Shown here: positions 1-6,140 of the stretch, in pieces
Numbering within the stretch: the stretch's first letter is position 1
How the letters are laid out: each line of letters opens with the position of its first letter
NCBI RefSeq assembly: GCF_964213995.1
Contig: NC_135808.1
Coordinates: 4,216,001-4,280,000 of the forward strand
Direction: 5' to 3'
From: Mustelus asterias
Lineage: Eukaryota
DNA: 64,000 nt
Translations under genes and position numbers: made by a program
Notes under the pieces: generated by a model
Told to the model about the DNA's origin: nothing
Database searches by the model: none
The model's input: the letters and a program-made list of their open reading frames with translations, nothing else

Positions 1-717
1 GGGCCACGGGAGGAGGCCAAGTGGGTGACGGCCAGGAAGGGTAAGGCTAGGGTGGTTGAGAGCACCCCGGTGGATTTGCCCCTGCACAACAAGTACTCCT
101 GCTTGAGTACTGCTGGGGGGGACAGCCCGCCTGGGGGAAGCAGCAGTGGCCGTGTCTCTGCAGTGGAGTCCAGCCCTGTAACTCAGAGGGCTAAGGAAAA
201 GAGGAGGAAGGCGGTATTAATCGGGGACTCGATGGTGAAGGGGACAGACAGGCGTTTCTGCGGAGGTAGGCGGGATTCTCGTATGGTGGTCTGCCTCCCT
301 GGGGCCGGGATCCAGGATGTCGCTAGTCGCGTCCCGGAAATCCTGAGGTGGGAGGGAGAGGAGCCTGAGGTAGCGGTACATATTGGTACCGCTGATGTGG
401 GTAGGAAGGGAGAAGGGGTCGTGAAAAGGGAGTACAGGGAATTAGGGAGACAGCTGAGAAAGAGGAAAGCAAAGGTAGTAATCTCAGGATTACTGCCTGT
501 GCCACGGGAAAGTGAGGGCAGGAATGGAGTGAGGTGGAGGATGAATGTGTGGCTGAGGGACTGGTGCAGGGGGCAGGGATTCAGGTTCCTGGACCATTGG
601 GACCTCTTTAGGGGCAGGGGTGATCTGTATACAAAAAACGGGTGGAACTTGAACCACACGGGGACCAATATCCTGGCCGGTAGGTTGGCTAAGGCTACTG
701 GGGAGAATTTAAACTAG
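1..717 (+). CDS. CR1 ORF1 (5'-partial), SGNH/GDSL esterase-like domain
   Basis: Frame is open from base 1 (GPREEAKWVTARK...). Motifs LIGDSMVK, CLPGA and VHIGT; ends ...ENLN* at TAG 715-717. Confidence 0.9.
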   Translation, partial: GPREEAKWVTARKGKARVVESTPVDLPLHNKYSCLSTAGGDSPPGGSSSGRVSAVESSPVTQRAKEKRRKAVLIGDSMVKGTDRRFCGGRRDSRMVVCLPGAGIQDVASRVPEILRWEGEEPEVAVHIGTADVGRKGEGVVKREYRELGRQLRKRKAKVVISGLLPVPRESEGRNGVRWRMNVWLRDWCRGQGFRFLDHWDLFRGRGDLYTKNGWNLNHTGTNILAGRLAKATGENLN

Positions 718-722
718 ATAGG

Positions 723-3700
723 TTGGGGGGAGGGGAGCTAGAAGAGTTGACTAGGATCAAGGAACTAATTGATGGGGGGGAGGATGCAGGGGTAAGGGGA
801 ATTACAAAATTAATGGTAGAGGAGAGGGTGCAAGTGAATGAAGGCAGTAATTTAGATAAGGGAGTAGAGGGAGAGGGTGTTCGCGACTCATCAAAGCGGG
901 TCCAGATAAAAGCTGGAATAAGGACACTTTGCCTGAATGCACGAAGCATTCGGAACAAGGTGAATGAGTTGATGGTGCAAATCAGCACAAGTGGGTACGA
1001 TCTAGTGGCCATTACAGAAACGTGGCTGAAAGGTGACCAGGACTGGGAGATGAATATCCAGGGGTATCAGGCGTTTAGGAAGAATAGACAGGAAGGAAAA
1101 GGTGGTGGGGTCGCGCTATTAATAAGAGATAATATCAGGGTAGTACTGAGGGATGACAGAGGCTCTGAGGAACAAAACGTGGAATCGTTATGGGTAGAGA
1201 TGAGGAATAGTAGAGGGAGAAAGACACTAGTAGGTGTGGTATATAGGCCCCCAAATAATAATGTTGAGGTGGGGAGGGCTATAAACAAGCAGATAAGGGA
1301 TGCGTGTAAAAACGGAACGGCAATAATCATGGGGGACTTCAACATGCACATTGACTGGCAGACTCAAGTCGGTAAGGGTGGAATGGAGGAAGAGTTCTTA
1401 GAATGCTGTCGGGATAGTTTCCTTGAACAGCATGTTACGGAACCGACGAGGGAACGAGCTATTTTGGATCTGGTATTGTGTAACGAGGTAGGTAGAATTA
1501 AGGATCTTATTGTGAAGGACCCTCTTGGGTCTAGTGACCACAATATGGTCGAATTTCTGATTCAGATGGAAGAGGAGAAAGTTTGGTCTCAAACCAGTGT
1601 CCTCTGTTTGAACAGAGGGAAATATGCTAGGATGAGGGATGAATTGGCTAAGGTAGACTGGGAGAGCAGGCTGGCAGGTAGGATAGCTGAGGAACAGTGG
1701 AGGATTTTTAAGGAGATCCTTTTCAGTTCTCAGCAAAAATATATTCCAGCAAAAAACAAGGATTGTAAGAAAAGGGAGAACCAGCCGTGGATAACGAAGG
1801 AAATAAAGGAGAGTATTAAAATAAAAACAGCTGCGTACAGAGTGGCCAAAAATAGTGGAGAAACAAGTGATTGGGAAAAATTTAAGAAACAACAAAGAGA
1901 GACTAAGAAAGCGATAAAGAAAGGAAGGATAGACTATGAAGCTAGGCTAGCAATTAATATAAAAAATGATAGTAAAAGTTTTTATAAATATATAAAAAGG
2001 AATAGAGTGGCTGGAGTGAATGTTGGACCCTTGGAGGACGAGAGGGGGGAGTTAATAGTGGGAAATGAGGATATGGCTGAGTCTTTAAATAAGTTTTTTG
2101 TGTCGGTCTTCACGGTGGAGGACACAAATAGTATGCCAAATATTAACGATAGAGGGTTGGCAGCAGGAGAAATACTTAATACGATTAATGTTACCAGAGA
2201 GGCAGTGCTGGGTAGACTAATGGGACTGAAGGTGGACAAGTCCCCGGGTCCGGATGGAATGCATCCCAGGGTATTGAAAGAAATGTCAGAGGTAATAGTG
2301 GATGCGTTAGTGATTATTTATCAAAACTCGTTGCATTCTGGGGTAGTGCCGGTTGATTGGAAAACGGCTAATGTTACGCCGCTGTTTAAAAAAGGAAGGA
2401 GACAAAAGGCGGGTAACTATAGGCCGGTCAGCTTAACGTCTGTAGTAGGGAAAATGCTGGAATCCATTATTAAAGAGGAGTTAGCAGGGCATCTGGATAG
2501 AAATGGTTCGATCAATCAGACGCAGCATGGATTCATGAGGGGAAAGTCGTGCTTGACGAACATGTTGGATTTTTATGAAGATGTGACTAGGGCGGTTGAT
2601 AGAGGAGAACCGGTGGATGCGGTGTTTTTGGATTTCCAAAAGGCGTTTGATAAGGTGCCCCATAAAAGGCTGCTGAAGAAGATTAGGGCACACGGAGTTG
2701 GGGGTAGTGTGTTAAAGTGGATTGGGGACTGGCTATCCGACAGGAAGCAAAGAGTCGGAATAAATGGGTGTTTTTCCGGTTGGAGGAAGGTAACTAGTGG
2801 CGTGCCGCAGGGATCGGTACTCGGGCCGCAACTGTTTACCATTTATATAGATGATCTGGAGGAGGGGACGGAGTGTAGGGTAACGAAGTTTGCAGACGAC
2901 ACAAAGATAAGTGGAAAAGTGAATCGTGTGGAGGACGGAGAAGATCTGCAGAGAGATTTGGACAGGCTGAGTGAGTGGGCGAGGATATGGCAAATGGAGT
3001 ATAACGTTGAGAAATGCGAGGTTATACACTTTGGAGGAAATAATAACAAATGGGATTACTATCTCAATGGAAACAAATTAAAACATGCTACCGTGCAAAG
3101 GGACCTGGGGGTCCTTGTGCATGAGACGCAAAAGCCCAGTCTGCAGGTACAACAGGTGATCAAGAAGGCAAATGGGATGTTGGCCTATATTGCGAGGGGG
3201 ATAGAATATAAAAGCAGGGATGTCTTGATGCACCTGTACAGGGCATTGGTGAGGCCGCAGCTGGAATACTGTGTGCAGTATTGGTCCCCTTATATGAGGA
3301 AGGATATATTGGCATTGGAGGGAGTGCAGAGAAGGTTCACCAGGTTGATACCGGAGATAAGGGGTTTGGATTATGAGGAGAGGCTGAGGAGATTGGGTTT
3401 GTACTCGTTGGAGTTTAGAAGGATGAGGGGGGATCTTATGGAGACTTATAAGATAATGCGGGGGCTGGATAGGGTGGAGGCGGAGAGATTCTTTCCACTT
3501 AGTAAGGAAGTTAAAACTAGAGGACACAGCCTCAAAATAAAGGGGGGTCGGTTTAGGACAGAGTTGAGGAGGAACTTCTTCTCCCAGAGGGTGGTGAATC
3601 TCTGGAATTCTCTGCCCACTGAGGTGGTGGAGGCTACCTCGCTGAATATGTTTAAAGCGCGGATGGATGGATTCCTGATCGGTAAGGGAATTAAGGGTTA

Positions 3701-3728
3701 TGGGGATCAGGCGGGTAAGTGGTACTGA
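723..3728 (+). CDS. CR1 ORF2: APE endonuclease plus reverse transcriptase
   Basis: LNARSIRNK, AITETWL, YRPP, MGDFN and SDH (APE); KSPGPDG, YRPVSLTS, LDFQKAFDKV, GVPQGSVLGP and FADD (RT). No stops over 1001 codons; frame open from 693; first ATG at 813. Confidence 0.97.
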   Translation: MGGGELEELTRIKELIDGGEDAGVRGITKLMVEERVQVNEGSNLDKGVEGEGVRDSSKRVQIKAGIRTLCLNARSIRNKVNELMVQISTSGYDLVAITETWLKGDQDWEMNIQGYQAFRKNRQEGKGGGVALLIRDNIRVVLRDDRGSEEQNVESLWVEMRNSRGRKTLVGVVYRPPNNNVEVGRAINKQIRDACKNGTAIIMGDFNMHIDWQTQVGKGGMEEEFLECCRDSFLEQHVTEPTRERAILDLVLCNEVGRIKDLIVKDPLGSSDHNMVEFLIQMEEEKVWSQTSVLCLNRGKYARMRDELAKVDWESRLAGRIAEEQWRIFKEILFSSQQKYIPAKNKDCKKRENQPWITKEIKESIKIKTAAYRVAKNSGETSDWEKFKKQQRETKKAIKKGRIDYEARLAINIKNDSKSFYKYIKRNRVAGVNVGPLEDERGELIVGNEDMAESLNKFFVSVFTVEDTNSMPNINDRGLAAGEILNTINVTREAVLGRLMGLKVDKSPGPDGMHPRVLKEMSEVIVDALVIIYQNSLHSGVVPVDWKTANVTPLFKKGRRQKAGNYRPVSLTSVVGKMLESIIKEELAGHLDRNGSINQTQHGFMRGKSCLTNMLDFYEDVTRAVDRGEPVDAVFLDFQKAFDKVPHKRLLKKIRAHGVGGSVLKWIGDWLSDRKQRVGINGCFSGWRKVTSGVPQGSVLGPQLFTIYIDDLEEGTECRVTKFADDTKISGKVNRVEDGEDLQRDLDRLSEWARIWQMEYNVEKCEVIHFGGNNNKWDYYLNGNKLKHATVQRDLGVLVHETQKPSLQVQQVIKKANGMLAYIARGIEYKSRDVLMHLYRALVRPQLEYCVQYWSPYMRKDILALEGVQRRFTRLIPEIRGLDYEERLRRLGLYSLEFRRMRGDLMETYKIMRGLDRVEAERFFPLSKEVKTRGHSLKIKGGRFRTELRRNFFSQRVVNLWNSLPTEVVEATSLNMFKARMDGFLIGKGIKGYGDQAGKWY

Positions 3729-3953
3729 TCCACGTCAGATCAGCCATGATCTTGTTGAATGGCGGGGCAGGCTCGAGGGGCTAGATGGCCTACTCCTGCT
3801 CCTATTTCTTATGTTCTTATAAACTAAATGTCTGTTTAAATTCTCTGATTTCAGAGTTACTGCCCAGGCCTGAAGCCTTTGACCTGCTGCTTATTGAGCA
3901 GACAAGCCAGAGCACAAGGTGACGACCCAAATTCCCCGTTTCTGCTCACTTAC

Positions 3954-4140: not shown

Positions 4141-6140
4141 CGCACAGCAAGATCCCACAGGGCGCAGCGAGATCCCACAGTACACGGCGAGATCCCACAG
4201 TGCACGGCGAGATCCCACAGGGCACGGCGAGATCCCACAGTGCACGGCGAGATCCCACAGTGCACGGCGAGATCCCACAGTGCACGGCGAGATCCCACAG
4301 GGCGCAGCGAGATCCCACAGTACACGGCGAGATCCCACAGGGCGCAGCGAGATCCCACAGTACACGGCGAGATCCCACAGTGCACGGCGAGATCCCACAG
4401 GGCACGGCGAGATCCCACAGTGCACGGCGAGATCCCACAGTGCACGGCGAGATCCCACAGTGCACGGCGAGATCCCACAGGGCGCAGCGAGATCCCACAG
4501 TACACGGCGAGATCCCACAGGGCGCAGCGAGATCCCACAGTACACGGCGAGATCCCACAGGGCGCAGCGAGATCCCACAGGGCACGGCGAGATCCCACAG
4601 GGCGCAGCGAGATCCCACAGGGCACGGCGAGATCCCACAGGGCGCAGCGAGATCCCACAGTACACGGCGAGATCCCACAGTGCACGGCGAGATCCCACAG
4701 GGCACGGCGAGATCCCACAGGGCACGGCGAGATCCCACAGTGCACGGCGAGATCCCACAGTGCACGGCGAGATCCCACAGTGCACGGCGAGATCCCACAG
4801 GGCGCAGCGAGATCCCACAGTACACGGCGAGATCCCACAGGGCGCAGCGAGATCCCACAGTACACGGCGAGATCCCACAGTGCACAGCAAGATCCCACAG
4901 GGCACGGCGAGATCCCACAGGGCGCAGCGAGATCCCACAGGGCACGGCGAGATCCCACAGGGCGCAGCGAGATCCCACAGGGCACGGCGAGATCCCACAG
5001 GGCGCAGCGAGATCCCACAGTACGCGGCGAGATCCCACAGTGCACGGCGAGATCCCACAGTGCACGGCGAGATCCCACAGTGCACGGCGAGATCCCACAG
5101 GGCACGGCGAGATCCCACAGTGCACGGCGAGATCCCACAGTGCACGGCGAGATCCCACAGTGCACGGCGAGATCCCACAGTACACAGCAAGCTCCCACAG
5201 TACACAGCAAGCTCCCACAGTACACAGCAAGCTCCCACAGTACACAGCAAGCTCCCACAGTACACAGCAAGCTCCCACAGTACACAGCAAGCTCCCACAG
5301 TACACAGCGAGATCCCACAGTACACAGCGAGATCCCACAGTACACAGCGAGATCCCACAGTACACAGCGAGATCCCACAGTACACAGCAAGATCCCACAG
5401 TACACAGCGAGATCCCACAGTACACAGCGAGATCCCACAGTACACAGCGAGATCCCACAGTACACAGCGAGATCCCACAGTACACAGCGAGATCCCACAG
5501 TACACAGCAAGCTCCCACAGTACACAGCAAGCTCCCACAGTACACAGCAAGCTCCCACAGTACACAGCAAGCTCCCACAGTACACAGCAAGCTCCCACAG
5601 TACACAGCAAGCTCCCACAGTACACAGCAAGATCCCACAGTACACAGCAAGATCCCACAGTACACAGCAAGATCCCACAGTACACAGCAAGCTCCCACAG
5701 TACACAGCAAGCTCCCACAGTACACAGCAAGCTCCCACAGTACACAGCAAGCTCCCACAGTACACAGCAAGCTCCCACAGTACACAGCAAGCTCCCACAG
5801 TACACAGCAAGATCCCACAGTACACAGCAAGATCCCACAGTACACAGCAAGATCCCACAGTACACAGCAAGATCCCACAGTACACAGCAAGATCCCACAG
5901 TACACAGCAAGATCCCACAGTACACAGCAAGATCCCACAGTACACAGCAAGATCCCACAGTACACAGCAAGATCCCACAGTACACAGCAAGATCCCACAG
6001 TACACAGCAAGATCCCACAGTACACAGCAAGATCCCACAGTACACAGCAAGATCCCACAGTACACAGCAAGATCCCACAGTACACAGCAAGATCCCACAG
6101 TACACAGCAAGATCCCACAGTACACAGCAAGATCCCACAC
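4141..6140. repeat. 20-bp minisatellite, about 100 units (tacacagcaagatcccacag and variants)
   Basis: Exact 20-bp period over 2 kb with blocks of variant units. Confidence 0.98.

Follow-up and report, generated by a model that had tools for sequence, protein, structure and literature searches.

We examined a 64,000-nt stretch of Mustelus asterias DNA (assembly GCF_964213995.1, contig NC_135808.1, positions 4,216,001-4,280,000 of the forward strand; hereafter the window), positions 1-3820 of which are occupied by a CR1-type long interspersed nuclear element (LINE) made up of the 3' part of open reading frame 1 (ORF1) and an uninterrupted ORF2 for an endonuclease and a reverse transcriptase (RT). 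The junction between the two frames is very probably a programmed -1 frameshift signal, which would give an ORF1-ORF2 fusion protein, and comparison of lineages suggests that this signal is most likely conserved across esterase-type CR1 LINEs, in which ORF1 carries an esterase. An earlier note, made from the letters of the window, had proposed such a fusion, and comparative sequence tests (codon choice at the junction, fixed phase and lineages without an AUG for ORF2) lend it strong support. The proposed mechanism applies to the family and not to the copy in the window, which is truncated at its 5' end and has no ORF1 AUG.

ORF1 of the window (the frame of position 1) terminates with AAT TTA AAC TAG (706-717), and the reading frames confirm that T_TTA_AAC at 708-714 lies in the slippery X_XXY_YYZ phase immediately before the TAG, as the earlier note had it. 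They also bear out its description of ORF2, which is in the -1 frame, is open from 693 after a TAA at 690-692, and has its first ATG at 813. Because of this TAA, only a shift within the final 7 ORF1 codons could be productive. Downstream, GGTTGGGGGGAGGGG starts at 721, 6 nt after the heptamer. The junction signal is real and far beyond chance. By background, in-phase canonical heptamers occupy 29 of 8826 codon positions (0.3%) in the ORFs of these elements; the succession of heptamer, stop, 7 nt and G5 has one occurrence in the window, and 0 of 100 shuffles contain it; and the full 27-nt pattern, itself derived from the data, has 17,871 matches in the searched genome (3.68 Gb), against 5 for a reversed control.

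Lineages were collected by anchors that exclude the heptamer, namely esterase-motif patterns (a collection that included 40 fetched regions), an endonuclease-start pattern and two ORF1 protein searches, together with 36 metagenome loci, which we call bird-like or invertebrate-like from their similarity. From this genome and the metagenome contigs, 181 of 212 loci reach the C-terminus of ORF1, which was located without its last 8 residues. These junctions carry TTTAAAC (147), TTTAAAT (9), GTTAAAC (2), CTTAAAC (1) or none of them (22), the last of which look, by inspection, like point-mutated or truncated copies. The heptamer is in the projected ORF1 phase in 133 of 159 copies, and a stop follows it directly in 152 (TAA 99, TAG 48, TGA 5). 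Among the TTTAAAT variants are decayed CR1 copies (L075, L080, L082-L084, L086, L091), near-identical on several small contigs, which were probably amplified within a larger repeat and not by retrotransposition.

The heptamer is conserved beyond amino-acid need, as expected of a -1 signal. We compared 21 lineage representatives, 13 from this genome and 8 metagenomic, all of them real copies picked for the motif and an open linker. The Leu codon is TTA in 21 of 21 (12% of ORF1 Leu codons) and the Asn codon is AAC in 21 of 21 (46% of ORF1 Asn codons), while the base before TTA is T in 20. The other 17 conserved ORF1 columns have mixed codons, with top-codon shares of 0.44-0.93, and the position before Leu-Asn is filled by 6 different amino acids among the 19 representatives tabulated. 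Synonymous variation at the Leu-Asn codons, which the earlier note had named as a sign against frameshifting, was sought across these lineages and none was seen. A genome search that allowed all codons for Gly-Leu-Asn-stop gave 97 distinct places among the first 100 of 1131 matches; by eye count, 88 of them read GGT TTA AAC and the remaining 9 are each one base off.

The protein ends agree with this pattern. The earlier note had ORF1s of other vertebrate CR1 elements also ending in Leu-Asn, and this holds in sharks and rays, birds, lizards and a turtle: 31 of 47 homologs and 79 of 84 further matches end in LN, including named proteins from all of these groups, of which the rays and sharks supply the nearest named homologs. 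Among 150 distant cluster representatives, 113 reach the end of the esterase, with 67 ending in LN, 10 in GN and 83 in Asn of any kind. After de-duplication, the residue before LN can have a T-ending codon in 55 of 55 proteins and the residue before GN a G-ending one in 9 of 9 (7 Gln), as expected for U_UUA_AAC versus G_GGA_AAC (Fisher p 2e-6, ignoring relatedness). At the protein level, GN-ending ORF1s would therefore fit a swap to the slippery G_GGA_AAC. The clade of esterase ORF1s ending (Q/S/A)GN, with a predicted G_GGA_AAC, includes P0180, P0195, P0197, P0206, P0208, P0210, P0213, P0251, P0253 and P0255; other esterase ORF1s end in KN, SN, EN or FN and may use further heptamers. DNA of GN-ending elements had no match in viral contigs or GTDB, neither of which yielded ORF1 relatives, and the GN-type pattern has 3 matches in the M. 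asterias genome, left out of the count of 181 junctions. One further LN-ending record, P0018, a protein named as an SGNH/GDSL hydrolase from Pseudomonas aeruginosa, shares 53% identity with this shark-type CR1 ORF1 and is probably host contamination of the record.

The -1 phase is likewise fixed across lineages; a variable phase was another outcome that the earlier note would have counted against itself. Of the 119 copies with both anchors, taken without selection, 91 have a linker in -1 phase ahead of the endonuclease, and 81 of these 91 linkers are open. Stops make up 10 of 4428 codons (0.23%) in the -1 frame, versus 306 of 4337 (7.1%) in the 0 frame and 435 of 4337 (10.0%) in the +1 frame. 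Linkers of 105-267 nt in different lineages are multiples of three, and recurrent linker lengths are multiples of three in 13 cases and off-phase in two; we read the out-of-phase copies as decay. In a check anchored on the endonuclease (30 loci examined), 20 of 23 heptamer-bearing copies were in frame and open, so that the -1 frame runs from the heptamer into the downstream protein. The linker of the window family itself looks chimeric, apparently joining ORF1 and slip site of one lineage to ORF2 of another, and its pairwise alignment with locus L206 has gaps of 51, 6 and 6 nt, all multiples of three. Locus L216 has a 267-nt linker with a duplicated endonuclease start. Both chimeric linkers retained the -1 frame. 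A search for natural fusions in a single ORF gave 16 longer matches, all bird gene models, 0 of which matched both the ORF1 end and the endonuclease start, so that they carry no weight either way.

Many of these ORF2s have no AUG ahead of the endonuclease. There is no in-frame ATG before the endonuclease start in 35 of the 81 open linkers, and 11 of the 21 representatives have their first in-frame ATG within the endonuclease, a domain that ordinary initiation would cut short. Termination-reinitiation would have the ribosome restart near the ORF1 stop in the -1 frame, at an AUG or non-AUG codon, and make a separate ORF2 protein (ORF2p), with the heptamer and G-tract serving to retain it. This would account for the open -1 linker and the fixed stop; four bird-like representatives have an ATG two codons after the stop, and, according to passages in reviews, SART1 uses UAAUG coupling and L1 uses reinitiation (PMC5972666, PMC2881922, PMC3894237). 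The overlapping TAATG of the SART1 type is, however, absent from the window family and present in 1 of 21 representatives, and no cognate or near-cognate start after the stop is common to the lineages. Reinitiation also predicts neither an exact in-phase X_XXY_YYZ at synonymous sites nor the LN/GN covariation, and we consider it unlikely.

Beyond the stop, G occupies +11 to +15 in 89-97% and +18 to +20 in 81-95% of the 159 copies; the run begins at +11 in 16 of 21 representatives and in the rest covers most of +11 to +15. The G-tract of the earlier note does start 6 nt after the heptamer in the window, but its GG at 721-722 is not conserved (GG at +7/+8 is present in about half of the copies), and only 725-729 and 732-734 are. 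The G-quadruplex (G4) that the note had placed there at stimulator spacing fails as a conserved mechanism, with 0 of 21 representatives capable of three tiers and the conserved G5 starting at +11, not +7; we rejected it as the conserved stimulator. A two-tier pattern is present in 12 of 21. ViennaRNA places a G4 in the predicted fold of 6 of 21 representatives, window family included, and four G3 runs about 6-8 nt after the slip site were not found. Synthetic G4 stimulators are most effective with three tiers and a spacing of 6-8 nt (part of PMC3919603), and natural ones are described, in part of PMC5009743, as not then known. Nor was a stable hairpin or pseudoknot found 5-8 nt downstream. The best pairing partners of the G-tract differ between lineages, that of the window copy lying in its own 3' untranslated region (UTR) and not being shared. 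What the lineages have in common is an unstructured conserved motif 11 nt downstream, as in arteriviruses. The stimulator is the least certain part of the mechanism. Because the G5-RN-G3 element is fixed in sequence and distance, yet has no conserved structure, it would most likely act via a bound protein or direct contact with the ribosome.

A fixed sequence and spacing without structure would also suit a protein-binding site of another kind, a non-decoding cis element for ribonucleoprotein assembly, protein binding or RNA 3'-end processing of an ORF1-only message, with ORF2 expressed from a separate transcript or by internal initiation. TTTAAA resembles a rare variant of the poly(A) signal, which would favour this reading. 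We find such an element very improbable: it leaves unexplained a -1 frame that is free of stops directly after the heptamer, and offers no account of ORF2p in lineages whose first AUG lies inside the endonuclease.

We give scarcely any credence to amino-acid constraint and shared ancestry as the whole explanation, that is, to an ORF1 protein (ORF1p) which needs a C-terminal Leu-Asn whose codons are kept by descent. The lineages are related and 13 of 21 representatives come from one genome; however, adjacent conserved residues diverged synonymously and the Leu-Asn codons did not, the third base of the freely varying preceding codon is fixed, and ORF1 identity to bird-like and invertebrate-like loci is only ~30%, so that the codon comparison of the 21 representatives already largely refutes this explanation. 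We rejected readthrough and a -2 or +1 shift (frames full of stops), splicing (a sense-strand intron would presumably be lost on retrotransposition, and no joints were found in four contig sets, a weak test) and transcription slippage at the G-run, which lies after the ORF1 stop and cannot join the ORFs.

Several observations weigh against a frameshift. Among the 119 linkers, 28 are out of phase, and off-phase lengths of 128 nt (three times) and 191 nt (twice) recur. In 10 of 21 representatives, window family included, the linker has an in-frame ATG, which in 5 cases follows the stop by no more than two codons. The representatives were selected for the motif and an open linker, are phylogenetically non-independent and come, in 13 cases, from one genome. 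The G_GGA_AAC variant is predicted from protein ends and was not seen as DNA. Of the 113 distant ORF1 representatives, 30 have a last residue other than Asn, so the signal is not universal among esterase LINEs. The region 700-860 folds no better than its shuffles (z +0.42), and the near-full-length copies scanned have no conserved long-range partner for the G-tract. With no conventional stimulator found, frameshift efficiency could be low.

If the junction works by frameshifting, most ribosomes would stop at the end of ORF1 and release ORF1p, and a minority would slip back one base. In the slip, tRNA-Leu and tRNA-Asn would re-pair from UUA/AAC to UUU/AAA, and decoding would resume at CUA (714). 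For a full-length family member, the predicted product is an esterase-endonuclease-RT fusion of 309 + 1004 = 1313 aa with the junction ...GENLN/LDRLGGG... The ORF1p:ORF2p ratio would thereby be high, and ORF2p would be tethered to multimers of ORF1p on the RNA that encodes it; the adjacent stop possibly helps by making the ribosome pause. A bolder version, which we put forward tentatively, is that the RT of esterase-type CR1, from sharks to birds and apparently some invertebrates, is made only as a Gag-Pol-like ORF1-ORF2 fusion, with the shift switched on in trans when an RNA-binding protein, either ORF1p or a G-tract binder of the host, occupies the unstructured G5-RN-G3 element, which would be a G-rich counterpart of the arterivirus signal.

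The features of the element are collected in Table 1. The ORF1 profile matches PDB 4c1b, 'ORF1-encoded protein' (2.3e-39). Truncation has cost the window copy both the ORF1 AUG and the first half of the zinc finger; the sequence that it shares with fuller copies begins at about -158, the truncation point. The full 309-aa ORF1 is present in 11 of 30 fetched family copies, in which the Cys pairs are visible and a Cys-rich zinc finger/coiled region precedes the SGNH esterase. In ORF2, Exo_endo_phos (~969-1541) and RVT_1 (~2394-3041) mark an apurinic/apyrimidinic endonuclease (APE) and an RT, with PF03372, PF14529 and PF00078 all above the Pfam cut-off. CR1 elements typically finish in short tandem repeats and lack a poly(A), as does the window element; its 3' UTR folds no better than shuffles (z -0.88). 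The element probably belongs to canonical CR1 and not to L2, an assignment based on its architecture and on homologs from sharks, rays, birds, lizards and a turtle.

Table 1. Features of the CR1 element, in window coordinates.
Feature	Position	Strand	Remarks
CR1 ORF1, 3' part (SGNH/GDSL esterase domain)	1..717	+	Pfam Lipase_GDSL_2, 1.1e-10
TAA closing the -1 frame upstream	690..692	+	many lineages also have a -1-frame stop here (frame open from -22)
ORF2, -1 frame, no internal stop	open 693..3728, entered at 714 after the predicted shift	+	linker of ~70 codons, APE endonuclease, reverse transcriptase
Slippery heptamer U_UUA_AAC (T_TTA_AAC), X_XXY_YYZ phase of ORF1	708..714	+	
ORF1 stop TAG, directly 3' of the heptamer	715..717	+	
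10-nt spacer (stop and 7 variable nt)	715..724	+	length fixed, sequence variable
G-rich element GGGGG-RN-GGG, candidate stimulator	725..734	+	putative mode of action
Second ORF1/ORF2 junction, apparently an in-frame relic derived from a different CR1 lineage	763..783	+	alignment with locus L206
First in-frame ORF2 ATG	813..815	+	T at -3, weak context; not conserved across lineages
3' UTR	3729..3820	+	about two 8-mer units at the end (3806-3820) and no poly(A); read from sequence

The family is young, the best 40 of 696 candidates being essentially identical over 560-1000. The heptamer is kept in 30 of 30 fetched family copies, and 26 of them have a -1 frame without stops as far as the fetched locus extends. 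The catalytic motifs of the esterase (window 226-237, 382-396, 637-654) are altered in this family, with GTAD for GxND and NGWNLN for DGLHLN, so that the catalytic Asn, Asp and His positions are changed; NGWNLN is present in 30 of 30 family copies, and most relatives retain DGLHLN. The esterase of the window family thus looks catalytically dead, yet this young and abundant family appears to be still amplifying.

Upstream of the truncated insertion, just before the window, lies a long CT-rich compound satellite (locus L031, about -2000 to -300). Just downstream of the element, at 4143-6139, is a 20-nt tandem array of ~100 copies (94% matches), which yields long spurious ORFs. Many older CR1-like ORF2 fragments, on both strands, are scattered over 15700-62600, and none of them reaches an ORF1 junction.

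CR1-group elements are the dominant retrotransposons of most vertebrates and make up 22-34% of shark and ray genomes (survey passages in PMC13343379), and the translation of LINE ORF2 is called an open question in a passage of PMC3894237. A conserved -1 signal, if true, would redefine CR1 ORF2p as an esterase-carrying fusion, explain ORF2s without an AUG, and correct both the annotation of intact CR1s and the way they are built for assays of retrotransposition. Chromosomal frameshifts would also gain a deeply conserved member whose stimulator is unusual and apparently unstructured. A trans-activated shift, if true, would give the host or the element a tissue-specific dial on retrotransposition.

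The element resembles the vertebrate CR1 elements with an esterase ORF1 (type IVB, CR1 subgroup 7, in passages of PMC4120745; surveyed in PMC13343379), which have a zinc finger/leucine zipper and esterase in ORF1, APE and RT in ORF2, short 3' repeats and frequent 5' truncation. By term search, 'frameshift' is absent from PMC4120745, PMC13343379 and PMC3905857, whose CR1 passages do not address ORF2 translation, and the first 300,000 characters of PMC5009743 do not mention CR1. The terms 'CR1 retrotransposon' and 'programmed ribosomal frameshifting' together had 0 literature matches, and full-text literature searches gave no description of CR1 frameshifting; the original chicken and turtle CR1 papers and the Repbase/Dfam notes lay outside their scope, and an earlier mention is possible.

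SART1 and L1 likewise have a bicistronic LINE RNA whose ORF2 depends on translation of ORF1, but they make a separate ORF2p from a start codon, and in CR1 the AUG is absent in 11 of 21 representatives. Translation of L1 ORF2 is reportedly AUG-independent. For Paramecium LINEs, a +1 shift or reinitiation has been suggested (in part of PMC5405496).

Viral -1 frameshifting (retroviral gag-pol, coronaviruses) shares with CR1 a canonical in-phase heptamer and the passage from a structural ORF to a polymerase ORF in the -1 frame. The coronavirus site is the same U_UUA_AAC heptamer as that of the CR1 junction. In contrast to these viral signals, CR1 has no conserved hairpin, pseudoknot or G4 at 5-8 nt downstream (spacing as given in part of PMC3919603). 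The -1/-2 frameshift in arterivirus nsp2 uses a C-rich motif and is stimulated by nsp1beta and a host protein. That motif is unstructured and conserved in sequence, and it lies 11 nt beyond the shift site (passages in PMC7939443), as does the G element of CR1. The CR1 element, however, is G-rich and not C-rich, and the -2 frame is closed in CR1 (19 of 19); the parallel is positional only. A precedent among APE-type non-long-terminal-repeat elements is given by TRE5-A and TRE3-A of Dictyostelium, the ORF2 of which requires a -1 frameshift according to a figure legend in the review PMC5911963. Compared by this legend, those elements belong to another family and another host, and CR1 adds an exact and widely conserved heptamer-stop-G element.

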